A stretch of DNA of 41,470 nucleotides from a virus (Duplodnaviria > Heunggongvirae > Uroviricota > Caudoviricetes). Made by a program: the position numbers and the translations under genes. Location: IMG/VR virus record IMGVR_UViG_2690316195_000001, positions 1-41,470 of that record; one strand, 5' to 3'. Below are positions 9,732-39,800 of this stretch, piece after piece. Position 1 is the first letter of the stretch; each line of letters begins with the position of its first letter. The notes below the pieces were generated by a model. It did not search any database. It was given only the letters and a program-made list of their open reading frames with translations, and was not told where the DNA came from.

Positions 9732-10448
9732 TCAAACCAGCCTTAGTTTTGTCTCAATTGCAACGCCTATAATCTTGCAGTTTCCATTGATTGGCACGAG
9801 AGGCCATGCAGGATTAAGTCCCTTGAGGTATTTATTTCCGCCGTCGATTATCAGCTTCTTGAATGTTGCTTCGTTAGAGTCAGAAAGTTTTGCTATGACC
9901 AAGCTGCCGTTGATCGCCTCCCTTCCGGTATCGAAAAGAACGAATGTTCCCTCTGGAATGCTTAACCCAACCGGTGCCGTCATTGAATCACCTTCCACTT
10001 TAAGCCAAAACGCATTACCTTGAATATGCGCGTCAGACTCAAGCCAAACATCTATGTCTTTAATGGTGTATGGTTCGCATGCTTCACACCACGAGCCAGC
10101 CTGGATACTGCTTAACACCGGATACCTCTTTCCTGCTCTGTATTCCCCTGCATACCTTACGTTGGCATCGCTCTTAAGGCTTTCTGCCTGTTCTGCAACC
10201 TTGGCAGCAATTGACTGGCTAAAATCAGCAATTGAGACTTGCAACAATCGTGCAAAACCAGATGCAACCTCAACGTTTAGCGCATTTCTGCCATTAAGAT
10301 AATGCCCTACCGCTCCTTGGGTGATACCCAGTTCATCAGCGATTGAGTATTGGGTTATTCCCAATTCTTTCTTTTTTGACTCATACAAAGCCTTAAGCCG
10401 CTTAGCGTCTTCGAGCTGTTCTGTCGTCAGTGATTTTTTATTTTCCAT
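9732..10448 (-). CDS. cI: CI-type prophage repressor (LexA-like autocleaving)
   Basis: 238 aa with strong similarity to lambda cI by recall ([20 protein letters not shown]...; FWLEVEGNSMTAP; FKKLI); Ala-Gly cleavage site (QAG) and Ser/Lys catalytic motifs present. Confidence 0.95.
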   Translation of the reverse strand: MENKKSLTTEQLEDAKRLKALYESKKKELGITQYSIADELGITQGAVGHYLNGRNALNVEVASGFARLLQVSIADFSQSIAAKVAEQAESLKSDANVRYAGEYRAGKRYPVLSSIQAGSWCEACEPYTIKDIDVWLESDAHIQGNAFWLKVEGDSMTAPVGLSIPEGTFVLFDTGREAINGSLVIAKLSDSNEATFKKLIIDGGNKYLKGLNPAWPLVPINGNCKIIGVAIETKLRLV

Positions 10449-10524: not shown

Positions 10525-10554
10525 TTTGTTCATGGTTAATAACGGAGAGTGCAT

Positions 10555-10749
10555 ATGATTCGAATGACACTTGCCGATTACGCCAAAATCCATGGACAGG
10601 CTAAAGCAGCCAGTGACTTTGGTGTAATCCAGTGCGCTATCAGCAAGGCCATTCTGGCAGGCCGTAACATCATGGTTACGGTAAAGCCTGATGGCAGTGT
10701 GATTGGAGAGGAAGTTCGTCCTTTCCCAAGCAACAAGAAAAACAAATAG
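10555..10749 (+). CDS. cro: Cro repressor
   Basis: 64 aa, [24 protein letters not shown]...[18 protein letters not shown] closely resembles lambda Cro; GGAGAG RBS; start trimmed from the track GTG to the ATG at 10555. Confidence 0.9.
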
Positions 10750-10801: not shown

Positions 10802-10856
10802 ACAACGCGCATAAGTTGATGCGCATAACTCTTATTTGTTAAGGAAATACTTACAT

Positions 10857-11135
10857 ATGGAACTTACAAGTACTCGCAAGAAAGCGAATGCAATTACAAG
10901 CAACATCCTGAATCGAATTGCTGTACGTGGTCAGCGAAAGGTTGCCGACGCGTTAGGGATTAATGAATCGCAAATTTCGCGATGGAAAGACAGCTTCATC
11001 CCAAAAATGGGAATGCTTCTGGCTGTTCTTGAATGGGGTGTTGAAGACGAGGAGTTGGCGGAACTGGCTAAGAAAGTAGCCAGAATGCTGACAAAAGAAA
11101 AAGCCCCGAAGAACGGCGAATTCTTCGAGGCCTGA
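10857..11135 (+). CDS. cII: CII transcriptional activator
   Basis: ...SQISRWKDSFIPKMGMLLAVLEWGVEDEELAELAKKVA matches lambda CII (SQISRWKRDWIPKFSMLLAVLEWGV); start set at the ATG at 10857. Confidence 0.9.
   Translation: MELTSTRKKANAITSNILNRIAVRGQRKVADALGINESQISRWKDSFIPKMGMLLAVLEWGVEDEELAELAKKVARMLTKEKAPKNGEFFEA
11093..11130 (-). terminator. oop-like antisense terminator overlapping the 3' end of cII
   Basis: Minus-strand hairpin (stem CGAAGAA/TTCTTCG extendable to 9-10 bp) followed by a TTTTTCTTTT tract; same position as the lambda oop terminator. Confidence 0.5.
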
Positions 11136-11169: not shown

Positions 11170-11331
11170 ATGACAAAACGTCGTAAGAAATACCAGGAAA
11201 AAGAAGAGATTCGACACCCTGATTCACCTGAGGGATTAGTGGTAGCCGCAGCAAATAACAGGGCGTTCGCAGAGCGCCTTGTTGGTGTTTACAGGCTAGC
11301 CAAAGCAGGAGTGAAACATGGGCGTCGTTAA
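11170..11331 (+). CDS. Possible small basic protein (53 aa), not in the ORF track
   Basis: ATG with AGGAG RBS at 11160-11164; MTKRRKKYQEKEE...; overlaps the start of the replication gene by 14 nt. Confidence 0.3.
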   Translation: MTKRRKKYQEKEEIRHPDSPEGLVVAAANNRAFAERLVGVYRLAKAGVKHGRR

Positions 11332-12208
11332 GTTAGCTGATTACAGGCATAACCCTGTACAACATCAGGAGGCATCCAGTATGGGGTATGTCTCTATACA
11401 CCGCCAGTTTATGGACAGCAGGCTCTATAAGGACTCTCAGGCAGTACATCTTTGGCTTCACTTAATCCTCAAGGCTAATCACGAATCTACTGTCGTCAAT
11501 ACGGATATCGGTCCGATAACTGTTGATCGCGGTCAGATGATAACTGGACGCCCGTCGCTGGTCAGAGAAACATTCATCCCCGACAACAAAGTTCGGAGCT
11601 TATTACGGACTTTTGAGTCGAAAGGGATGCTTAATATTTGCTCGATGGGGAAGAAATTTAGCCTGTTTACAATCGTTAAATATGACGATTTTCAGGCAAA
11701 AAATTGTCCAACGGTTGTCCAACGGTTGTCCAACGCAAACACCAGTAATGGCGCGGCTCTCAGTGGAGATTGTCCAACGGTTGTCCAACGGTTGTCCATA
11801 AACAATAATATAAATAATATCTCTAATACTGACGTATTAGAGAGTGCCACAGCAGACAAAAAGTCTGACAAGAAAAAACCTCCCGTCAGCTGTCAGGATG
11901 TTGTCGATGCTTACCACGAAATCATTCCTGAAGCGCCAAGAATCCGCGCACTGAATGACAAGCGTAAAAACCAGATCCGAACGTTCTGGCGCAAAGCCGG
12001 AGTGATAACCCGCCAGCTTGACGGACATGGGTTCACGATGCAGGACTGGAGAAATTATTTGAGCTACGTAGGCGAAAATTGCCGATGGATGTTCGAAGAG
12101 CGTCCAAACCATCAACGCGGAACCGTCTGGCACAAAAAGGGATTTGATTTCCTGCTTAACGATAATACCTACCTGAAAGTTCGTGAGGGTGAACACGATG
12201 ACCGATAA
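11318..12208 (+). CDS. Replication initiator (O-like) with internal origin iterons; alternative start at 11381
   Basis: Position after cII, iterons inside the coding sequence as in lambda O, ATGA-type overlap with the helicase gene; the C-terminal DnaT-like call is tentative. Confidence 0.75.
   Translation: MGVVKLADYRHNPVQHQEASSMGYVSIHRQFMDSRLYKDSQAVHLWLHLILKANHESTVVNTDIGPITVDRGQMITGRPSLVRETFIPDNKVRSLLRTFESKGMLNICSMGKKFSLFTIVKYDDFQAKNCPTVVQRLSNANTSNGAALSGDCPTVVQRLSINNNINNISNTDVLESATADKKSDKKKPPVSCQDVVDAYHEIIPEAPRIRALNDKRKNQIRTFWRKAGVITRQLDGHGFTMQDWRNYLSYVGENCRWMFEERPNHQRGTVWHKKGFDFLLNDNTYLKVREGEHDDR
11704..11800. repeat. Origin iterons: six copies of TTGTCCAACGG in two triplets, followed by an AT-rich tract
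   Basis: Direct 11-bp repeats at 11704-11736 and 11770-11800, encoding the repeated peptide CPTVVQRLS, then an AT-rich stretch to about 11830. Confidence 0.75.
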
Positions 12209-13634
12209 TTTTTATGCGCCGCCCCATAGCATCGAGGCAGAGCAGGCGGTGATTGGTGGATTGCTTCTGGATGATGACAGCAGTGAGCGCGTCCAGAAAG
12301 TTCTGGCGATGCTGAAGCCTGATTCATTTTACAGCCGACCACACAAAATCCTTTTCGAAGAAATAACCAGAATGCACCGGGAGCAAAAGCCAGTAGATGG
12401 CCTGACGCTTTTCGATGAACTGGAGCGTAAATCGTTAACGGCGTCTGTTGGCGGTTTTGCTTATATCGCTGAGATCGCAAAGAACACGCCAAGCGCAGCA
12501 AACATTGTTGCCTATGCAATGCAGGTTCGTGAAACCGCAATGGAACGCTACGCCATCAACCGCATGACTGAAGCGACGGAATTGCTCTATTCCCGCAACG
12601 GAATGACTGCAACGCAGAAGTACGAAGCTATTCAGGCGATTTTCACGCAACTGACAGACCATGCAAAAACCGGATCGCGTCGCGGCCTTCGCTCATTTGG
12701 TGAGGTCATGGAAGACTGGGTTAGCGACCTTGAGAAGCGATTTGACCCGTCAGGCGAACAACGAGGAATGAGCACAGGGATCCCATCTCTGGACAGGATG
12801 CTGTCACCGAAAGGTCTGGTGAAAGGCTCTCTGTTCGTCATTGGCGCTCGCCCTAAGATGGGGAAAACGACGCTATACAGCCAGATGGCAATCAACTGCG
12901 CAGTGCATGAGAAAAAGCCCGCTCTGATGTTCAGTCTTGAAATGCCAGGCGACCAGATACTGGAAAAGCTGGTAGGACAGAAGTCAGGTGTTAACCCGAA
13001 TATTTTTTACCTTCCGGCGACAAATGACGCTGATGACGGCTATCAGGGTGATTACGATGGTGACTTCAACAGGGCGATAGAAACAGCAAATCGCTTGAGT
13101 GAAATCGACATGCTTTACATCGACGACACGCCGGGATTATCTCTGGCTCAAATCGTCAGCGAAAGCCGTCGAATCAAGCGAGAAAAAGGATGTGTTGGCA
13201 TGATTCTGGTCGATTACCTGACACTAATGACCGCTGAGAAGGCCGATCGCAACGACCTTGCTTACGGCATGATCACCAAAGGACTGAAGAACCTTGCCAA
13301 AGAGCTTGATTGCGTTGTTGTGCTTCTGACGCAGCTTAACCGCGCATTGGAAAGCCGAACCAATAAACGCCCATTACCAAGTGACTCGCGAGATACAGGG
13401 CAGATTGAACAGGATTGCGATTATTGGGTTGGGATCCATCGGGAAGGTGCTTTTGATGACAGCGTTCCTCCTGGTGAAACCGAACTAATCCTTCGCCTCA
13501 ATCGTCATGGCAATACCGGCACGGTGTATTGCATACAGGCAAATGGCGCTATTTATGACACAGACCAACAGTCTGCTGAAATGCGCCGCCGTGAACGCGA
13601 GGAACCGCAGTCCAAGAAGAAAGGAGGATTCTGA
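12198..13634 (+). CDS. DnaB-family replicative helicase (P22 gp12 analogue)
   Basis: 478 aa with N-terminal DnaB domain (SIEAEQAVIGGLLLD), Walker A (GARPKMGKT) and RecA-like core; GAGGG RBS; start overlaps the stop of the initiator. Confidence 0.9.
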   Translation: MTDNFYAPPHSIEAEQAVIGGLLLDDDSSERVQKVLAMLKPDSFYSRPHKILFEEITRMHREQKPVDGLTLFDELERKSLTASVGGFAYIAEIAKNTPSAANIVAYAMQVRETAMERYAINRMTEATELLYSRNGMTATQKYEAIQAIFTQLTDHAKTGSRRGLRSFGEVMEDWVSDLEKRFDPSGEQRGMSTGIPSLDRMLSPKGLVKGSLFVIGARPKMGKTTLYSQMAINCAVHEKKPALMFSLEMPGDQILEKLVGQKSGVNPNIFYLPATNDADDGYQGDYDGDFNRAIETANRLSEIDMLYIDDTPGLSLAQIVSESRRIKREKGCVGMILVDYLTLMTAEKADRNDLAYGMITKGLKNLAKELDCVVVLLTQLNRALESRTNKRPLPSDSRDTGQIEQDCDYWVGIHREGAFDDSVPPGETELILRLNRHGNTGTVYCIQANGAIYDTDQQSAEMRRREREEPQSKKKGGF

Positions 13635-18270: not shown

Positions 18271-18474
18271 ATGTACCGTATGGACAAAATCAGAGAATGG
18301 TTCAGTTACAGCTTCGGAGGACTGACTGCGATGGGTGGCATTCTCTCCCTGAATGACTGGGCTGTCATCATTGGTATTCTTTGTACTGTCGGCACATTTG
18401 GCATCAACTGGTACTACAAGCGCAAAGAGCGCGAGGACAGATTGAATGGCAATGTCACCGGCACTACGAAATAG
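18271..18474 (+). CDS. Holin, probably pinholin-type, with dual-start motif
   Basis: 67 aa, two TM segments, Gly-rich TMD1 ([13 protein letters not shown]), charged C-terminus; two Met codons at positions 1 and 4 (MYRM); partnered with a SAR endolysin. Confidence 0.7.
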
Positions 18475-18949
18475 CGTAATAGCGGCGATAAGTGGCGGGG
18501 CTATTGCTATAGCATCTGTGTTAATCACTGGGCCAAGTGGTAACGATGGTCTGGAAGGTGTCAGCTACATACCATACAAAGATATTGTTGGTGTATGGAC
18601 TGTATGTCACGGACATACCGGAAAAGACATCATGCTCGGTAAAACGTATACCGAAGCAGAATGCAAAGCCCTCCTGAATAAAGACCTTGCCACGGTAGCC
18701 AGACAAATTAACCCGTACATCAAAGTCGATATACCGGAAACAACGCGCGGCGCTCTTTACTCGTTCGTCTATAACGTGGGCGCAGGCAATTTCAGAACAT
18801 CTACTCTTCTTCGCAAAATAAACCAGGGCGATATCAAAGGCGCATGTGACCAGCTACGTCGTTGGACATATGCTGGCGGTAAGCAATGGAAAGGGCTGAT
18901 GACTCGCCGTGAGATTGAGCGTGAAGTCTGTTTGTGGGGGCAACAATGA
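18446..18949 (+). CDS. SAR endolysin (phage 21 R-type lysozyme)
   Basis: N-terminal signal-anchor-release domain ([30 protein letters not shown]) plus lysozyme core; matches the phage 21 endolysin by recall. Confidence 0.9.
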
Positions 18950-27503: not shown

Positions 27504-28922
27504 ATGCCGATTCAGCAACTTCCGCTTATGAAAGGTGTCGGCAAAGACTTTCGAAACGCCGACTATATCGACTATCTGCCAGTGAATATGCTGGCTACAC
27601 CCAAAGAAATCCTTAACAGCAGCGGATATCTTCGCTCATTCCCGGGCATTGCCAAACGCTCTGATGTGAATGGTGTATCGCGCGGTGTCGAGTACAACAT
27701 GGCGCAGAATGCTGTTTATCGCGTTTGCGGTGGAAAGTTGTATAAGGGCGAAAGCGAGGTCGGTGACGTCGCCGGAAGTGGTCGCGTATCAATGGCTCAT
27801 GGTCGGACATCACAGGCAGTTGGCGTTAACGGGCAACTGGTCGAGTATCGCTATGATGGCACGGTTAAAACAGTCTCAAACTGGCCTACAGACAGCGGAT
27901 TCACGCAGTATGAGTTAGGTTCGGTTCGTGACATTACGCGCTTGCGTGGGCGTTATGCGTGGTCAAAAGACGGCACTGATTCATGGTTTATCACTGACCT
28001 TGAAGACGAATCGCATCCTGACCGTTACAGCGCACAATATCGTGCTGAGTCTCAGCCTGACGGCATCATCGGCATAGGTACATGGCGAGACTTTATCGTC
28101 TGCTTTGGTTCATCGACGATTGAATATTTCTCCCTGACAGGCGCAACTACCGTTGGTGCCGCTTTGTATGTCGCACAGCCATCACTGATGGTGCAAAAAG
28201 GCATCGCCGGGACTTACTGCAAAACGCCATTCGCTGATTCTTATGCGTTCATCAGCAATCCGGCAACAGGTGCGCCGTCTGTGTACATCATCGGCTCCGG
28301 TCAGGTGTCACCAATCGCCAGCGCGAGCATTGAGAAAATTCTCCGCTCCTACACTGCTGATGAACTGGCTGATGGCGTAATGGAATCGCTGCGGTTTGAT
28401 GCTCATGAATTGCTGATTATCCATCTTCCGCGTCACGTCCTCGTGTACGACGCATCTTCAAGCGCCAATGGTCCGCAATGGTGTGTGTTGAAAACAGGCC
28501 TGTATGACGATGTGTACCGCGCTATCGACTTCATTTATGAAGGCAATCAGATAACGTGCGGCGATAAGCTGGAATCCGTGACCGGGAAATTGCAGTTCGA
28601 CATCAGCAGCCAGTATGGGCTACAGCAAGAACACATGCTGTTTACTCCACTGTTCAAAGCGGATAACGCCAGAGTTTTCGACCTTGAAGTTGAATCGTCA
28701 ACTGGCGTTGCGCAGTACGCCGACCGCCTGTTCCTCTCTGCAACCACTGACGGCATAAATTACGGGCGTGAGCAGATGATTGAGCAGAATGAACCGTTCG
28801 TTTATGACAAACGTGTTTTGTGGAAGCGAGTCGGGCGCATCAGGAAAAACATTGGCTTCAAATTGCGCGTTATCACGAAGTCACCTGTAACTCTGTCTGG
28901 CGCTCAGATAAGGATTGAGTAA
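27504..28922 (+). CDS. Tail hub protein (P22 gp10 homologue)
   Basis: [49 protein letters not shown]... near-identical to P22 gp10 by recall. Confidence 0.9.
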
Positions 28923-30227: not shown

Positions 30228-30920
30228 ATGTTATATGCATTTAAGCTGGGCAGAAAACTGCGCGGCGAGGAACCTTATTGCCCTGAAAAAGGCGGGAAAG
30301 GTGGCAGCTCTGATAAAAGCGCAAAGTATGCAGCAGAAGCTCAGAAGTATGCCGCAGACCTGCAAAATCAGCAGTGGCAGACGATCATGAAAAACCTTGC
30401 TCCGTTCACGCCTCTTGCGGAGCAGTATGTTAACCAGCTTCAGAATCTTTCCAGTTTAGAAGGTCAGGGGCAGGCACTTAATCAGTATTACAACTCTCAG
30501 CAGTATAAAGACCTTGCAGGTCAGGCGCGTTACCAGAGTCTTGCTGCTGCGGAGGCGACGGGTGGACTTGGTTCGACAGCCACAAGCAATCAACTGGCTA
30601 CGATCGCGCCGACACTCGGTCAGTCTTGGTTATCAAATCAGATGAGCAATTACAACAATCTGGCAAACGTTGGGCTTGGTGCGCTGCAAGGTCAGGCAAA
30701 CGCTGGGCAGACATACGCCAACAACATGAGCAGCATTGCACAGCAAAGTGCAGCACTTGCCGCTGCTAATGCCAATAAACCATCAAGTCTTCAGACTGCA
30801 ATTAGCGGTGGCACGTCTGGTGCGATCGCCGGTGCAGGTCTTGCCAGCCTTTTGGGAACATCAACGCCTTGGGGCGCTGGCATTGGTGCTGGTATCGGAT
30901 TGCTTGGCTCGTTGTTTTAA
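30228..30920 (+). CDS. Ejection protein, gp7-like (by synteny and size)
   Basis: 230 aa, Gln/Ala/Gly-rich with C-terminal hydrophobic segment; first of three ejection-protein genes. Confidence 0.65.
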   Translation: MLYAFKLGRKLRGEEPYCPEKGGKGGSSDKSAKYAAEAQKYAADLQNQQWQTIMKNLAPFTPLAEQYVNQLQNLSSLEGQGQALNQYYNSQQYKDLAGQARYQSLAAAEATGGLGSTATSNQLATIAPTLGQSWLSNQMSNYNNLANVGLGALQGQANAGQTYANNMSSIAQQSAALAAANANKPSSLQTAISGGTSGAIAGAGLASLLGTSTPWGAGIGAGIGLLGSLF

Positions 30921-35689: not shown

Positions 35690-37582
35690 ATGTCAGATAT
35701 CACCGCAAATGTTGTGGTAAGCATGCCTTCGCAACTCTTCACTATGGCTCGTTCTTTTAAAGCCGTAGCCAATGGCAAAATTTATATCGGTAAAATTGAC
35801 ACTGACCCGGTAAATCCTGAAAACCAGATTCAGGTTTATGTGGAGAACGAAGACGGTTCTCACGTTCCTGTTTCGCAACCAATCATCATTAACACTGCTG
35901 GATATCCGGTATATAACGGACAGATTGCCAAGTTCGTAACTGTGCAAGGCCATTCTATGGCTGTTTATGATGCATATGGTGCGCAGCAGTTCTATTTTCC
36001 TAATGTGCTGAAGTATGACCCCGATCAGGCATTGCCAGCTTTCATAAGTAAATTGGCAGCAGTTGATGGTGAATCTTATATTGTTGGGGCGACTTATGAA
36101 CAAATAAGGACATCTAATGTTTCTGGAACGCAAATAAAATGCGTAGGAAGAGAACATAATAAGGATGGAGGGGAAGGATGGTTCTTCCTTGACTCAGATG
36201 ATACAACGACTGAAGATGATGATGGAACAGTATTAATTGATGCAGTCGGCCGTCGCTGGAAGCGTTCATATAATGGCGCAAAAATGGCTTCATGGTTTGG
36301 CGTGAAATCTGGAACAGAGGTTTCACCTGCTATTCAAAATATGCTTAATACTGGTACTGGAGGTATAGAAATTAAGGATGGGCAATACAATTCTACCACA
36401 AAAGTTACAGTAAACCACTCTGGATCAAATTTTCCTGTAATGGGAAGAAAAAGTAAGAGGTTTGACTTTACTGGCGAGTCAATGGTGAATACTGCATTTA
36501 ACACCAATGGCAATGATTTCCTTGAGTATATAGGTAATTCAGAAGGGGACGGGCAGGGTGTGCATAGCGGTATGAAGTTATCTAATTTCACTGTTTATGG
36601 TACTGGTAACTCTGGAGTTGGATTACGGTTAAGCAATGCTGCATACCTAAAAGTTGAGGATGTGTATCTCGTAAGAAATAATTCAGGCTTGGTAATAACA
36701 GGAGTTCTTACCAGTGAATTTAACAGAATTAACTCTCAATATAATAACTACGGTATGTACATCAACGGAGGAACAAACAGCACAGTTAACGCACTAAAAA
36801 TAAATGGTGTTTTTAGTGGTAACTCAAAATTTGGAATTGAAGGAGATATAGGCACAAGGATAAATCTAAACAACTGCAATTTTGAGGGTAATGGAACTCA
36901 GGGAGATACTGGTACAGGAGGTGTTTACCTAAGAGCTAAAGAACCAATGTCTGTGATAAATATATCTGATTGCTATTTTGAAGCAAATCAAGGAATATCA
37001 GACATTCAGGTTAATAACATGACATCTTCACCTCTTATAGTAAATATCAATTCATGCACATTTATAAGGGGGAATTCATCAGGCGGTTATTGTACATATG
37101 TGATTAGAGCGTTAAGCACTGGTGGTGGGCGTGTCATTGTTAACCTTAATGGGTGTCATTTTTTTACTCAAACAGCTTTTGGATACATACCTAGCGCTTC
37201 GAGACCATTTATCTCAGGAGGTACTTATATGACTTTAAATGGAATGGATACCTGTCATTTTAGTGAGGACATAAGCAAGTCTATATCTACGGTAAGCACT
37301 TCATCGGTGATTTCTGGAAGTGTAACATCGGCAGGTGTTGCGTATGCACCATCTTATTTAACAATAGCAAAACAATCCACAGGGGTATATTCAATTGATA
37401 GCACTTTCTCATATGGACCAACAGTAAATGACTTTCAGGTAGTAGCAAGTACTAAAACTAACGGGTTTAAGGTGCTATATGCAGGCAAGCCAAGCACAAC
37501 AGCCATCAGGATCGTGACCACTGATAACTCTGGCAACTTGGCTGATGCAGATTTTGACTTTATGATAACAAGAGTTAGATAA
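35690..37582 (+). CDS. Tailspike with P22-type head-binding domain and divergent beta-helix receptor-binding domain
   Basis: N-terminal about 125 aa ([43 protein letters not shown]...VLKYDPDQ) match the P22 gp9 head-binding domain; remainder is a repetitive, AT-rich beta-helix-like region. Confidence 0.9.
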
Positions 37583-37586
37583 AATT

Positions 37587-37619
37587 AAGGGCGAATACCG
37601 CCCTTAGCTTATTTTTTTA
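37587..37619. terminator. Bidirectional rho-independent terminator between convergent tailspike and gtrC
   Basis: Stem AAGGGCG/CGCCCTT, loop AATAC, with A-rich 5' flank and T-rich 3' flank. Confidence 0.6.
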
Positions 37620-38880
37620 TTATATCTAAATACCATCCTGAGTGTGGTAGTGTGTGCATTTTCACGCGGCTCCCTGGCTCTGCTGTCTCATATTTGTATG
37701 CCTCTTGCACCCATCCATTGTTAGGTCTTTTTTCAATTTTAAAGCTAACAATTCCAGATAGAATTACTGAGCAAGCCACTATGCAAAATGCTAATTTCTT
37801 TACATGCCCATGAAGCATATTAGTGAATGCTAGAAGTATCGACACCCAAAATATGGCCGGTATGACAAAATACCTTTGTCCTGGTCCTATTTGTAAGAGA
37901 GGCCATTGAGGCTGGTCTCTTGCAATGACTGGTCTGGCAAGGGCAAATCCCAACATAAGATAAGGAAAAATCACTAATGCTTTTTCTTTCCAGTTCCCTT
38001 TTAATAGCACGTATGCACTAATTGATAGGCCACATAAAGAAACAAAGTAATTTAAAGCATGCAGATCCCACACCTTTCTTGATAAGCTCTCGCTAAGAAA
38101 TGAGCCAAGGAATACTCTGGAGGATAGTATATCCATCAAAATACCTACACCTGCACCAAGTGGCGCGGTCGGTCGAGAGCCTTTAGAAGAGAGAAGTATG
38201 GCGGCTATCTGAATTAAACACACTATTGCGAAAGTTATGTAGAATAAGTTTAAGTTTCTGAATGCATTTTTTACTGCATTGATAGGAGTTTTTAGAATAT
38301 CTCCGTTTGTAATTCTTAGTAAGGCAACAGGAGCTAAAAAAACAATGAATGGCCCACTTAGGCCAGCCACAACCATCACCAAAAAGTCGTGTGCTTTCCA
38401 ATATAATCCATCAGTTCTATCTGCTACCAGCACCAAGAATAGCCATATTGCCATATACCAATGAGTGTTGGTTACGTTGGCATGCACCTCTTCAAGGTGT
38501 GGCATAGTTAAAATGAAGATTGAAATTAATATTCTTGGATATATAGAAACGCTTTTGAATCTATTAGATAGTATGAAGGTTATTATTACGCATCTTATCG
38601 ATAATGCAATAACAGTGAAAATAAAAGGTGATAGATATAATGGGAACAGCATGGAGAATGTCGCAACAAGTTTTGAAATTGTCTGATAGTAACCATCCTG
38701 TACTAAAATTATAGATTTCAGAGGGCCCAATGCATAAGCCTGACCAAGCCATACCCGTCCATCCTCTGCCCATAGTTGAGGGTGTGAAATAATATCAGGA
38801 CGACGCATGCAGAATATGATGAAACATATAACAAATATAATCAAAAACAAAAATATTCTGTTTGTGTTTATGCTATTCAT
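37609..38880 (-). CDS. gtrC: GtrC-like serotype-specific O-antigen glucosyltransferase (polytopic membrane protein)
   Basis: 423 aa, about 10 TM segments, AT-rich; ATGA overlap with gtrB; third gene of a gtrABC-type operon. Confidence 0.65.
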
Positions 38881-39800
38881 GATTGTTCCTTTTTCTTTAA
38901 AATATATCGTGGTCTGCATTTTACTTCCACATAAATTCTTCCTATATATTCACCAAGTACACCGATACCGATAAGTTGAATACCTCCAAGGAAAAGAATG
39001 GAGACCAATAACGATGGATATCCACGAACAGCATTGCCGAATACAAGCGTGTCAAAAATCATCCATGCACCATAAAGAAAAGCAATTCCAGCAACGAACA
39101 ATCCGATATAAGTCCACATGCGCAGCGGGAATGTTGAGAAACTGGTTATCCCCTCAAGGGCAAGGTTCCACAGTTTCCATCCGTTAAATTTAGTGCTGCC
39201 TGCGACTCGTTCTGCTCGTGCATATTCAACGACATCGGTGCGTCCGCCAACCCAGCTCAGCACGCCCTTCATAAACAGGTTGCGCTCTGGCATGAGCTTA
39301 ATGTTTTCCACCACCTCGCGAGACATCAAGCGGAAATCACCAACGTTTTCCTCGATCTGCGGGTTGCTAATTTTGTTATGCAGCTTATAGAACCACTCGG
39401 CGGTTTTCCTCTTCAGTCTGCCATCCGTTGATCGGTCAGATCGTTTAGCAAGCACCATATCGGCACCTGCTTGCCACTTTTCAATCAGATGAGGAATAAC
39501 CTCAATCGGGTCTTGCAGGTCAACATCAATAGGAATAACAGCATCGCCTGTTGCATGGTCTAACCCTGCGAATAATGCTGGTTCTTTACCAAAGTTTCGT
39601 GTAAATGACAGCGGAACAACTAGAGGATCTGAAACAGCCAGAGCATTAATAATTGACTCCGTAGCGTCTTTGCTGCCGTCATTTATGAAAACAATTTCCA
39701 CTTCGTATGGCTTCAACTCTTCGAATTCACGTACCGTTTTATAAAAAATTGGTATTGCTTCTTCTTCATTGAAGACAGGAACTACAAGAGATATCTTCAT
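38877..39800 (-). CDS. gtrB: GtrB bactoprenol glucosyltransferase (GT2 family)
   Basis: 307 aa; GT2 motifs ([19 protein letters not shown]-x-D region) plus two C-terminal TM helices. Confidence 0.9.

Follow-up and report, generated by a model that had tools for sequence, protein, structure and literature searches.

A block of short direct repeats followed by an AT-rich stretch lies in the middle of a replication gene of a virus of the class Caudoviricetes (IMG/VR record IMGVR_UViG_2690316195_000001; the complete stretch of 41,470 nucleotides analysed here is referred to as the window). The question raised by this locus is whether the block is the origin from which the genome replicates or, alternatively, a regulatory array, an RNA element, or a by-product of duplication within a coding sequence. 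The preliminary description assigned to it the binding sites of the initiator and the probable unwinding element of an origin, and computation supports this assignment through selection, layout, coupling with the N-terminal domain of the initiator, duplex instability and prior annotation. From sequence comparison, we consider it highly probable that the region is the origin at which theta replication starts in a temperate phage of the P22-like (HK620/Sf6-like) kind, located inside the linker-coding part of the gene for its own initiator.

Anatomy of the repeat array and its host gene

The repeats begin at 11704, as originally noted, and comprise six units in two clusters (Table 1). They had been described as six direct copies; there are indeed six units, but only four, at 11704, 11715, 11770 and 11781, are exact copies of TTGTCCAACGG, whereas the unit at 11726 matches at 10 of 11 positions, its last base being C, and the unit at 11792 is truncated, with a match at 7 of 11 (TTGTCCA, then taaa). 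Similarly, the distance of 66 bp given for the clusters is correct as the offset from start to start, but not as the gap, which is 33 bp. The units are head-to-tail direct repeats that lack an internal dyad, and their conserved core is TGTCCAAC, 8 bp at unit positions 2-9, with the other 3 bases variable. A CAAC-G-GTTG symmetry across the unit junctions was considered as a conserved feature and rejected, because it is confined to this variant and does not occur in ST160 or L. Compared with a DnaA box, the truncated sixth unit agrees at no more than 7 of 9 positions.

Table 1. Coordinates, in the window, of the putative origin elements and of the genes and domains around them
Feature	Position	Strand	Remarks
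Replication initiator gene	11318..12208	+	296 aa; type of Sf6 gp43, phage L gp18; PHROG 345
Predicted N-terminal winged-helix DNA-binding domain, coding region	11384..11695	+	aa ~23-126; predicted recognition helix aa 89-101
Iteron cluster 1	11704..11736	+	three head-to-tail 11-bp units, starts 11704, 11715, 11726
Spacer	11737..11769	+	33 bp = three 11-bp periods
Iteron cluster 2	11770..11798	+	units 11770 and 11781 complete, third (11792-11798, TTGTCCA) truncated
A-rich AT tract, probable DNA unwinding element	11799..11819		instability extends into the hairpin, to ~11839
Perfect inverted repeat TCTCTAATAC-tgac-GTATTAGAGA	11820..11843		10-bp stem, 4-nt loop
C-terminal helical domain, coding region	11885..12205	+	aa ~190-296; putative helicase-interaction module
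DnaB-type replicative helicase gene	12198..13634	+	Pfam DnaB 3e-31, DnaB_C 3e-60

In the whole window, TRF detects three tandem arrays only, two of which are the iteron clusters (period 11, 11704-11735 and 11770-11798, 100% matches each), and the tandem-repeat scan found no other iteron-like array in the window. The multiplicity of 11-mers alone is uninformative, given that four copies are reached in 3 of 300 shuffles, and neither does counting the pattern with 2 mismatches separate the repeats from shuffles; clustering and phase statistics were used instead. The 9-mer TGTCCAACG occurs five times on the plus strand, against 0.14 expected, with all five occurrences in 11-bp register. Five copies of one 9-mer lie here within 100 bp; of 300 dinucleotide shuffles, 299 reached two copies and the remaining one three. 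At 25 positions, an 8-mer is repeated exactly 11 bp further on, whereas shuffles give 0.77 such positions on average and never more than 4. The repeats do encode a repeated peptide, as had been proposed (CPTVVQRLS, at aa 130-138 and 152-160), but each 11-bp copy of a triplet sits in a different reading frame and, therefore, the 11-bp unit cannot be a repeat at the peptide level.

The encoded protein belongs to PHROG 345, 'replication initiation O-like' (E = 7e-84), and its gene is 98.9-99.1% identical in DNA to the O genes of Sf6, HK106 and mEp234. The earlier designation of the gene as O-like holds in that the repeats are inside the initiator ORF, but it does not extend to similarity with lambda O, which was undetectable by BLASTP (E = 4.5), so the gene is not referred to here as a homologue of lambda O. 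Assignment to the type of P22 gene 18, the 'Gp18' label carried by hit records, was also rejected: the phage L paper puts the identity to the true P22 gp18 at only 25% and counts four repeats of ~20 bp there (PMC8022706). Searches of the initiator against Pfam and NCBIfam yielded nothing above threshold, with DUF7376 below threshold over the linker only, and none of the eight members of the initiator family examined matched a Pfam family at threshold. When the family profile was run against PDB sequences, the one match, to a bromodomain, lay in the low-complexity linker and was spurious.

An AF2 model of the initiator, of medium confidence overall (mean pLDDT 66), consists of an N-terminal domain in which an HTH is followed by a beta-hairpin wing (pLDDT 76-91), a helical C-terminal domain (pLDDT 75-90), and between them a linker, aa 138-188, that is predicted to be disordered (pLDDT < 50) and coincides with the origin-encoded residues, 129-176. 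Foldseek against PDB matched the N-domain only to generic winged-helix proteins, TubR among them, and weakly (E >= 0.03), with no close or specific structural relative of the initiator in PDB; together, model and matches point to a predicted winged-helix fold.

The next gene encodes a DnaB-type helicase. Its longest ORF begins with GTG at 12183, but the start is probably the ATG at 12198, placed by homology to Sf6 gene 44 and confirmed by translation, from which the ORF overlaps the initiator gene by 11 nt. The first 97 aa of this helicase are 98-100% identical to the helicases of L and HK620. In the ORF list, there is no gene for a lambda-P-type loader between initiator and helicase.

Selection on the repeats and covariation with the N-terminal domain

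The layout of three 11-bp units, a 33-bp spacer, three further units, AT tract and hairpin is kept in ~325 related loci from phages of Escherichia, Salmonella, Klebsiella, Pantoea, Enterobacter, Erwinia and Cronobacter. In every lineage, the clusters start 66 bp apart and a truncated form of the unit (CCATA or CCACA) recurs, and the spacer is conserved in length and variable in sequence, with an amino-acid invariance of 0.09. Could such repeats, nevertheless, have been left behind by slippage or duplication in a disordered linker that tolerates such events, or have been selected as a peptide repeat, without any cis function in DNA? The region does encode a low-confidence, probably disordered linker, and the repeats recombine, as natural variants with an in-frame gain or loss of 66 bp attest. 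However, across seven lineages with this iteron, at 61-85% protein identity, the invariance of third codon positions is 0.83 in cluster 1, 0.80 in cluster 2 and 0.86 in the AT tract, against 0.15 and 0.17 in the folded N- and C-domains, respectively. Judging from this comparison, the iterons and the AT tract are under purifying selection at the DNA level, beyond what coding explains. Furthermore, in 40 distinct related sequences, positions 2-9 of the unit, the core, are essentially invariant while the junction bases drift (15, 24 and 31 variants at positions 10, 11 and 1, respectively), and conservation of the AT tract extends to its individual bases, rather than to T-richness alone. The 11-bp period is out of codon frame, and a neutral product would not persist in ~325 loci from at least seven host genera. 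Along with the covariation of lineage-specific cores with the DNA-binding domain, described below, selection and core invariance effectively refute this explanation of the repeats, to which we assign next to no probability.

The lineages differ in their cores, which are TGTCCAAC, TGTCCAGC, GTGCCAAC, TTACCAAC and TACCAGC. There is one iteron core per cluster of N-domains, and each core is paired with several clusters of C-domains; thus, the core tracks the N-terminal winged-helix domain independently of the C-terminal domain. Two relatives illustrate the pattern from opposite sides: HK620 has a C-domain 97% and an N-domain 50% identical to those of the initiator in the window, and a different iteron, whereas ENT47670, with 55% identity in the C-domain and 83% in the N-domain, has the same iteron. 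Within the predicted recognition helix, residues 93/94 co-vary with bases of the core, with (K/R)(S/A) paired with TGTCC, KY with (G/A)TGCC, and QY with (T/G)TACC. Linkage contributes to this covariation because the sequences, although mosaic, are phylogenetically related.

Variants with one or with three clusters are common in bacterial genomes, so either the exact 3+3 arrangement is not obligatory or some of these prophages are defective. More distant relatives of the N-domain, such as those in Staphylococcus phage PVL (orf46) and Vibrio phage 1.085.O, have repeats with a period of 11 bp at the same position in the gene; no clear 11-bp array was found in Shewanella phage 3/49. Erwinia phage 59 alone combines a C-terminal segment resembling that of lambda O, as judged by eye on an alignment, with a P-like loader. 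Salmonella phage ST-29 (L006), the initiator gene of which is frameshifted, was left out of the protein analyses.

The AT tract and the adjacent palindrome

The AT-rich stretch reported after the repeats was confirmed, with 12.5% GC in 11799-11830 and a range of 8.7-12.5% GC for the AT tract. The element had been drawn as ending at 11830 but, given the perfect inverted repeat at 11820-11843, it extends to 11843. At segment lengths of 21, 31 and 41 bp alike, 11798-11839 ranks first in duplex instability among the ~41,440 segments of the whole window.

The palindrome was overlooked in the preliminary description. As single-stranded DNA, it folds with dG = -7.5 kcal/mol (z = -5.6). Every lineage surveyed has a hairpin at this offset, with a palindrome of 9-10 bp and a 4-nt loop, and compensatory double changes affect 9 of the 10 pairs of the stem without wobble intermediates, a pattern matched in 0 of 500 shuffles. 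All 25 changed stem cells are Watson-Crick double changes, and G-U intermediates occur in 0 of 90 cells. Such Watson-Crick-only changes fit a dyad acting at the DNA level better than an RNA helix.

This bears directly on the possibility that the AT tract and hairpin (11799-11843) constitute an RNA element, either a leftward intrinsic terminator or an mRNA hairpin. A consensus scan does find a minus-strand terminator-like site at 11843-11820, with the tail TATTATTTAT, and a second one at 11889-11865; the record of phage L has two minus-strand terminators at the homologous places, and the minus-strand RNA folds with -13.5 kcal/mol (z = -3.0). The match comes, however, from a crude minus-strand pattern, the stem is weak for a terminator, with G-C in 3 of its 10 pairs, and the T tract is interrupted by an A. 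No leftward promoter is known or predicted, save for 9/12 consensus matches inside the iterons, and both the base-by-base conservation of the AT tract and the presence of the same kind of A-rich tract and palindrome in the lambda origin speak for a DNA element. Taken as a whole, these observations make a function in RNA improbable. A search of Rfam returned nothing over the origin region at E <= 1, nor over the whole window at gathering scores, and ARAGORN found no tRNA.

The palindrome is inherited with the module formed by the C-terminal domain and the helicase, not with the iterons, and the identity of the initiator C-domain across phages likewise follows the adjacent helicase rather than the iterons. 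The joint of recombination between the N-terminal and C-terminal modules falls in the AT tract (11799-11819). Genetic data cited in the phage L paper indicate that the replication region of L swaps as a unit (PMC8022706). We tentatively propose, with considerable reservation, that the palindrome is a functional structure of origin DNA rather than a passive spacer; conceivably, it may be extruded as a hairpin in one strand after melting, marking the site of helicase loading or the start of priming. The origin may then be bipartite, with a half that provides specificity, made of N-domain and iterons, and a half made of C-domain, helicase and hairpin, joined by recombination in the AT tract.

Relationship to known origins and a possible mechanism

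The closest relatives have been annotated in agreement with this interpretation. Gene 43 of Sf6 is 98.9% identical in DNA over 891 bp, and the rep_origin feature of Sf6, 28385-28480 (AF547987), corresponds to 11703-11798 in the window. The record of phage L places rep_origin at the same repeats, and that of HK620 (AF335538) at the homologous ones; the phage L paper describes 'six imprecise repeats of ... TGTCCAACGGA; likely the origin' (PMC8022706). The annotations in Sf6 and L are predictions and cover the repeats only, without the AT tract or the palindrome, and the searchable literature yielded no origin cloning, footprinting or mapping of replication intermediates for this origin type. The locus has the traits of the Sf6/L-type module, namely, a related initiator, a central block of six 11-bp repeats with the core TGTCCAAC(G) in its gene, and an overlapping DnaB-family helicase gene. 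The iteron copies align column for column with those of Sf6, ST160 and L. The initiators of L and ST64T share 82% amino-acid identity with this one over aa 23-296, and the origin in the gene 18 of L, ST64T and ST160 is of the same make; L shares the TGTCCAACG core in six copies as well as the hairpin, and its AT tract is identical. The differences from Sf6, L, ST64T and ST160 are confined to junction bases, a few bases of the spacer and the N-terminal ~22 aa of the initiator. The group of HK620, HK022 and VT2-Sakai has an initiator of the same family (65% identical overall, 97% in the C-domain), the same succession of 3x11, 33 and 3x11 bp and AT tract, an identical hairpin, and a helicase N-terminus that is 100% identical. 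HK620 differs in its N-domain, with 50% identity, and in its core, (G/T)TACCAGC instead of TGTCCAAC, which points to a different origin specificity.

The lambda origin is experimentally established and bound by the O protein, relatives of which occur in 434, 933W, P27 and ES18; a general description of the lambdoid origin is available (PMC7466680). The characterization of the locus as a classic lambdoid origin is apt with respect to layout, that is, iterons, AT tract and palindrome in the linker of the initiator, but not with respect to the type of iteron or the homology of the initiator. As in lambda, the origin lies within the initiator gene between the parts for the N- and C-terminal domains, and the lambda sequence, read directly, has the same succession of iterons, an A-rich tract and a palindrome with a 4-nt loop, GTCAGAGAATTC-tggc-GAATCCTCTGAC. 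In contrast, the four iterons in lambda gene O are imperfect inverted repeats of 18-19 bp spaced by 20-24 bp, each bound by an O dimer, whereas those studied here are 11-bp direct repeats without an internal dyad, arranged in two phased triplets. The partner of the initiator differs as well, being a DnaB-type helicase of the phage itself, whereas in lambda, the loader P recruits the host DnaB.

The lambda comparison also bears on a further alternative, under which the initiator, or some other protein of the phage, does bind the array, the main role of which is nevertheless regulatory, be it autoregulation, a roadblock to transcription, or titration of the initiator for copy control or exclusion, with replication starting elsewhere. 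The covariation of N-domain and iterons implies a partnership of protein and DNA, the purpose of which it does not specify, and iteron arrays can act as titrators, inasmuch as the lambda origin, when present in ectopic copies, reportedly inhibits phage growth (PMC3349717, PMC4488673). However, the array is always joined to the least stable duplex and a conserved palindrome, as in the proven origin of lambda, the window contains no other iteron-like array, and the helicase gene adjoins the layout in every lineage. A mainly regulatory array therefore seems unlikely, by a wide measure.

Origins of similar design exist outside the lambdoid phages. In SPP1, according to the published description with which we compared it, oriL combines direct repeats with an AT-rich unwinding element inside gene 38, which encodes the origin-binding protein G38P (PMC6316719). 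The N-domain matches PHROG families annotated as 'DnaD-like helicase loader' (E = 1.6e-23 and 9e-16), and in tblastn, it shows 27-31% identity to proteins of Staphylococcus and Bacillus phages, including 31% to PVL orf46, where the corresponding part of the gene contains at least nine repeats of 11-bp period that lead into an AT tract. The SPP1 and PVL orf46 types differ from the present one in the sequences and numbers of their repeats, and their C-terminal domains are unrelated; SPP1 also has a separate helicase loader, G39P, whereas here, the initiator and helicase genes overlap directly. In iteron plasmids, winged-helix Rep initiators act on direct repeats that adjoin an AT-rich unwinding element; these iterons measure 17-22 bp, and two-domain Rep monomers contact iterons of ~22 bp. 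The winged-helix TubR of the TubR-tubC centromere serves in partition rather than in initiation. The likeness to Rep and TubR, a winged-helix protein on helix-phased repeats in the same orientation, is an analogy that involves no sequence relationship; by that analogy, ~11 bp per winged-helix domain would match the ~22-bp iterons of two-domain Rep.

From these comparisons, we infer a sequence of binding, bending, melting and helicase recruitment. The N-terminal winged-helix domain of the initiator would bind the 8-bp core TGTCCAAC. All six sites would lie on one face of the DNA because the core recurs once per 11-bp turn and the triplets are three turns apart. Cooperative binding would then bend or wrap the DNA, as in the lambda O-some, and strain the adjacent AT tract; this analogy is an extrapolation because the iteron geometry differs from that of lambda. 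The strained tract, the least stable duplex, would melt, and the C-terminal domain of the initiator would recruit the DnaB-type helicase encoded by the next gene onto the opened DNA. The palindrome to the right of the AT tract would belong to the origin and may stabilise the open complex or mark the site of loading or priming.

As a discovery, this matters little: Sf6 and L already carry an annotation of the repeat block as a putative origin, as HK620 does for its homologue, the phage L paper discusses it, and the prediction of the origin, known from these near-identical phages, is ordinary but well supported. It does fix the origin and the module boundaries of the phage or prophage for annotation and engineering, and precise origin maps have some practical value because phage origins and palindromes are reported to trigger the Lamassu/DdmABC defence (PMC12663957). 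The origin type is widespread, occurring in HK022, HK620, Sf6, L, ST64T, VT2-Sakai and many prophages of E. coli, Shigella, Salmonella and Klebsiella, and its geometry, two phased triplets in which every helical turn presents a single 8-bp core, departs from the lambda paradigm. The pairs of N-domain and iteron, with residues 93/94 tracking bases of the core, represent a candidate specificity code, and the compensatorily maintained palindrome is a candidate origin component that these phages would have in common with lambda.

Phased iterons inside the initiator gene

The window, which represents a lambdoid phage or prophage of the P22-like, HK620/Sf6-like kind, contains two arrays of an 11-bp unit within 11704-11798. 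Exact copies of TTGTCCAACGG start at 11704, 11715, 11770 and 11781; the copy at 11726 matches at 10 of 11 positions, its last base being C, and the sixth, at 11792, retains TTGTCCA and then passes into AT-rich sequence. Thus, the six direct copies reported in the preliminary description are real as repeats, but only four are exact, with one imperfect and one truncated; the reported 66-bp distance between the clusters holds as a start-to-start offset, the intervening gap being 33 bp, exactly three periods. Tandem Repeats Finder recovers the clusters as two period-11 arrays, each with 100% matches; only one other tandem array exists in the 41.5-kb window, two copies of a 21-bp unit with 86% matches at 30317-30358. 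On the plus strand there are five occurrences of the 9-mer core TGTCCAACG, all in register, against 0.14 expected, and an 8-mer is repeated at exactly 11-bp distance at 25 positions. In 300 dinucleotide-preserving shuffles, such positions numbered 0.77 on average and never more than 4, no 9-mer exceeded three copies per 100 bp, and 299 of the 300 peaked at two. Plain k-mer multiplicity and the two-mismatch count were uninformative and are left out of the argument. A lone minus-strand TGTCCAACG core at 18859-18869, in ORF 18446-18949 and remote from the origin, may be a chance occurrence, given the 0.14 expected per strand.

The third unit of each triplet (11726-11740 and 11792-11802) is a conserved variant in every lineage, ending in ...CCAACGC-AAAC in cluster 1 and ...CCA(T/C)A-AAC in cluster 2; the truncated sixth copy is, therefore, a fixed feature rather than a decayed repeat, and it matches a DnaA box at only 7 of 9 positions. 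Each cluster encodes one copy of the peptide CPTVVQRLS, but the three units of a cluster are read in three frames, so that what had been described as a repeated peptide is a repeat at the DNA level. Constraint was measured as the fraction of invariant third codon positions, by region, among seven lineages that share the iteron at 61-85% protein identity, namely, the window, phage L, Cronobacter ENT47670 and four IMG/VR contigs (see the table). Across 40 distinct sequences of the window-iteron lineage, there is essentially no variation at unit positions 2-9 (TGTCCAAC), whereas positions 10, 11 and 1 show 15, 24 and 31 variants, respectively, implying a functional unit that consists of an 8-bp core and three free bases per 11 bp. 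The length of the spacer is always the same, although its sequence varies.

Among the variants from IMG/VR, locus L062 has three clusters (+66 bp) and a 318-aa initiator, and locus L064 has one (-66 bp) and a 274-aa initiator. Genomes of E. coli, Shigella and Salmonella commonly encode initiators of 318, 274 and 277 aa, and two clusters are present in all 26 cultured-phage records with a window-type initiator. Indels in 66-bp steps keep the reading frame, and we infer that units probably change in threes owing to the coding frame: three (3 x 11 = 33) are the fewest that can be gained or lost without a frameshift.

The array indeed lies inside an O-like gene: the initiator matches PHROG 345 'replication initiation O-like' (E = 7e-84), with no family matched in Pfam or NCBIfam. 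Its AlphaFold2 model, built from 17 sequences (mean pLDDT 66), recovered in Foldseek only weak matches to generic winged-helix proteins. The repeats, AT tract and palindrome together encode aa 129-176, so the element sits in the linker. The longest helicase ORF opens at GTG 12183, overlapping the initiator gene end; homology to Sf6, L and HK620 makes the ATG start, with an 11-nt overlap, the probable one. Upstream, antisense to the cII 3' end, lies a strong minus-strand terminator-like hairpin (11101-11133; 14 pairs, then a T run), which had no match in Rfam; its position matches that of the oop terminator of lambda, which suggests an OOP-like antisense RNA.

Coordinates and properties of features in the window and in related loci
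Feature	Position	Third-position invariance	Remarks
cI	9732-10448		minus strand
cro	10549-10749		
cII	10836-11135		
Small HK97-gp53-like ORF	between cII and initiator		
Initiator	11318-12208		296 aa
Winged-helix N-domain	aa ~26-125	0.15	AlphaFold2, pLDDT 76-91
Linker	aa 138-188		AlphaFold2, low confidence
Iteron cluster 1	11704-11736	0.83	
Spacer	11737-11769	0.55	
Iteron cluster 2	11770-11798	0.80	
AT tract	11799-11819	0.86	
Palindrome	11820-11843	0.38	
Helical C-domain	aa 190-293	0.17	AlphaFold2
DnaB-type helicase	12198-13634		probable start ATG 12198
Palindromes, related loci	L003 737-760; L005 810-831; L007 803-826; L008 809-832; L009 734-757		9-10-bp stem, 4-nt loop
Three-cluster locus	L062 1861-2090		
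One-cluster locus	L064 1861-1960		
Variant initiators, 318 aa	P0001-P0022		
Variant initiators, 274 aa	P0032-P0042		
Erwinia phage vB_EhrS_59	L010 638-1817		
Salmonella phage ST-29	L006 226-1125		CP051288
Staphylococcus phage PVL orf46	L092 1227-1346		
Vibrio phage 1.085.O	L093 1213-1267		
Bacillus phage 049ML001	L095 1259-1307		SPP1-like

The AT tract and the adjoining palindrome

The AT-rich stretch said to follow the repeats is borne out, with a GC content of 12.5% over 11799 to 11830, and 11798-11839 is the least stable duplex of the whole window by nearest-neighbour free energy at the 21-, 31- and 41-bp scales. Several of the AT-rich segments that rank next in instability cluster in 36700-38910 (for example, 37603-37633, 38505-38545 and 38815-38856), a region that may be of low GC content and horizontally acquired. 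Directly past the AT tract is a perfect inverted repeat that the preliminary description lacked, TCTCTAATAC-tgac-GTATTAGAGA, which scores -7.5 kcal/mol as single-stranded DNA (z = -5.6). The stem varies widely in sequence, and the loop is constant as TRAC or TAAA. In nine distinct lineage sequences, two-sided changes affect 9 of the 10 stem pairs, and of the 90 cells, 95.6% are paired and not one carries a one-sided (wobble) change; this covariation is approached by none of 500 shuffles and by no slid register.

Conceivably, the palindrome acts at the RNA level, as a terminator: the hairpin with its T-rich minus strand scored as terminator-like in a crude scan and is annotated as a terminator in the phage L record. 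However, the weak stem, the lack of wobble pairs and the parallel in lambda render this the less likely possibility, and a role as DNA is favored. Immediately to the right of the palindrome, at 11865-11889, the minus strand has another terminator-like hairpin, and the phage L record has two minus-strand terminators annotated at positions homologous to both hairpins.

The stem type follows the C-domain cluster of the initiator, not the N-domain or the iteron. This association may reflect simple linkage, because the joint at which modules recombine falls in the conserved AT tract, or else may result from co-evolution with the helicase module. The AT tract is a putative unwinding element and a putative recombination joint.

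Coupling of iterons and initiator domains

The ~325 loci fetched in all, with initiator homologues from HK620/HK022, Klebsiella ST11-VIM1phi8.1, Pantoea PA-1, Enterobacter CobraSix, Erwinia vB_EhrS_59, Cronobacter ENT47670 and phage L, follow a common plan: three 11-bp units, 33 bp, three 11-bp units with the last cut after CCA, the AT tract and, at a fixed offset, a 9-10-bp palindrome with a 4-nt loop. The cores are lineage-specific (TGTCCAAC, TGTCCAGC, (G/A)TGCCAAC, TTACCAAC and (G/T)TACCAGC), one per N-domain cluster at 80% identity, the sole exception being one cluster-5 locus with GTCCAAC as its first core; each core is combined with several C-domain clusters. Relative to the window, the C-domain of HK620 is 97% identical and its helicase start the same, but identity in the N-domain drops to 50% and the iteron differs; ENT47670, with a C-domain only 55% identical and an N-domain 83% identical, shares the iteron. 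Helicase identity tracks the initiator C-domain. Residues 93/94 (11594-11599), in the predicted recognition helix, co-vary with core positions 2-4, with the pairings (K/R)(S/A)-TGTCC, K-Y-(G/A)TGCC and Q-Y-(T/G)TACC; uncorrected for phylogeny, this correspondence is a lead.

In Erwinia phage vB_EhrS_59, the family N-domain and the 3+33+3 iteron, AT tract and hairpin plan are joined to another type of C-terminal segment, which on visual inspection of the alignment looks lambda-O-like, and the next gene encodes a lambda-P-like loader. To judge from these sequences, the phage represents a domain swap that arose naturally between two systems of helicase recruitment, and such swaps are to be expected under a division of labor in which the N-domain would recognize the iterons and the C-domain would serve the helicase system. 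In Salmonella phage ST-29, the initiator is frameshifted into ORFs of at most 117 aa, with iterons, AT tract and hairpin intact, owing to either a sequencing error or a defective prophage.

Relation to lambda and to annotated origins

In distant N-domain relatives, too, direct repeats with an 11-bp period occupy the corresponding place in the gene, just past the part that codes for the N-domain, and AT-rich sequence comes next: in Staphylococcus phage PVL orf46, at least nine copies of AACATCAAAAC precede an AT tract, and similar arrays occur in Vibrio phage 1.085.O and Bacillus phage 049ML001. An initiator gene with a site at every helical turn seems, then, to be a general trait of this N-domain family. 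The lambda origin, read directly, consists of four 18-bp dyad iterons, an A-rich tract and GTCAGAGAATTC-tggc-GAATCCTCTGAC, so that the order of parts is alike, palindrome included. The classic lambdoid ori of the preliminary description, accordingly, stands as a layout but not as membership in the lambda O/ori family: the window iterons are 11-bp units in direct orientation, BLASTP detects no similarity between the initiator and lambda O (E = 4.5), and the helicase is phage-encoded.

The element has been annotated before. Positions 28385-28480 of the Sf6 record, equivalent to 11703-11798, are labeled 'putative; repeat region reminiscent of the phage lambda origin; similar to phage HK620', and rep_origin features also mark the homologous repeats in the records of HK620 and phage L. 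The phage L paper (PMC8022706) regards six imprecise repeats as the likely origin, and genetic evidence that it cites indicates that the replication region of phage L replaces that of P22 only as a whole; a full-text literature search found no biochemical or genetic mapping of a window-type origin. Taken together, these observations make it highly probable that the window element is a replication origin, a well-supported prediction. Given that this type of element is known and already annotated, its interest as such is low. What appears worth keeping is the 8-bp core, the phased 3+3 geometry and the strict coupling of N-domain and iteron, along with the AT tract as a putative unwinding element and recombination joint, and the compensatorily maintained palindrome that the family has in common with lambda.
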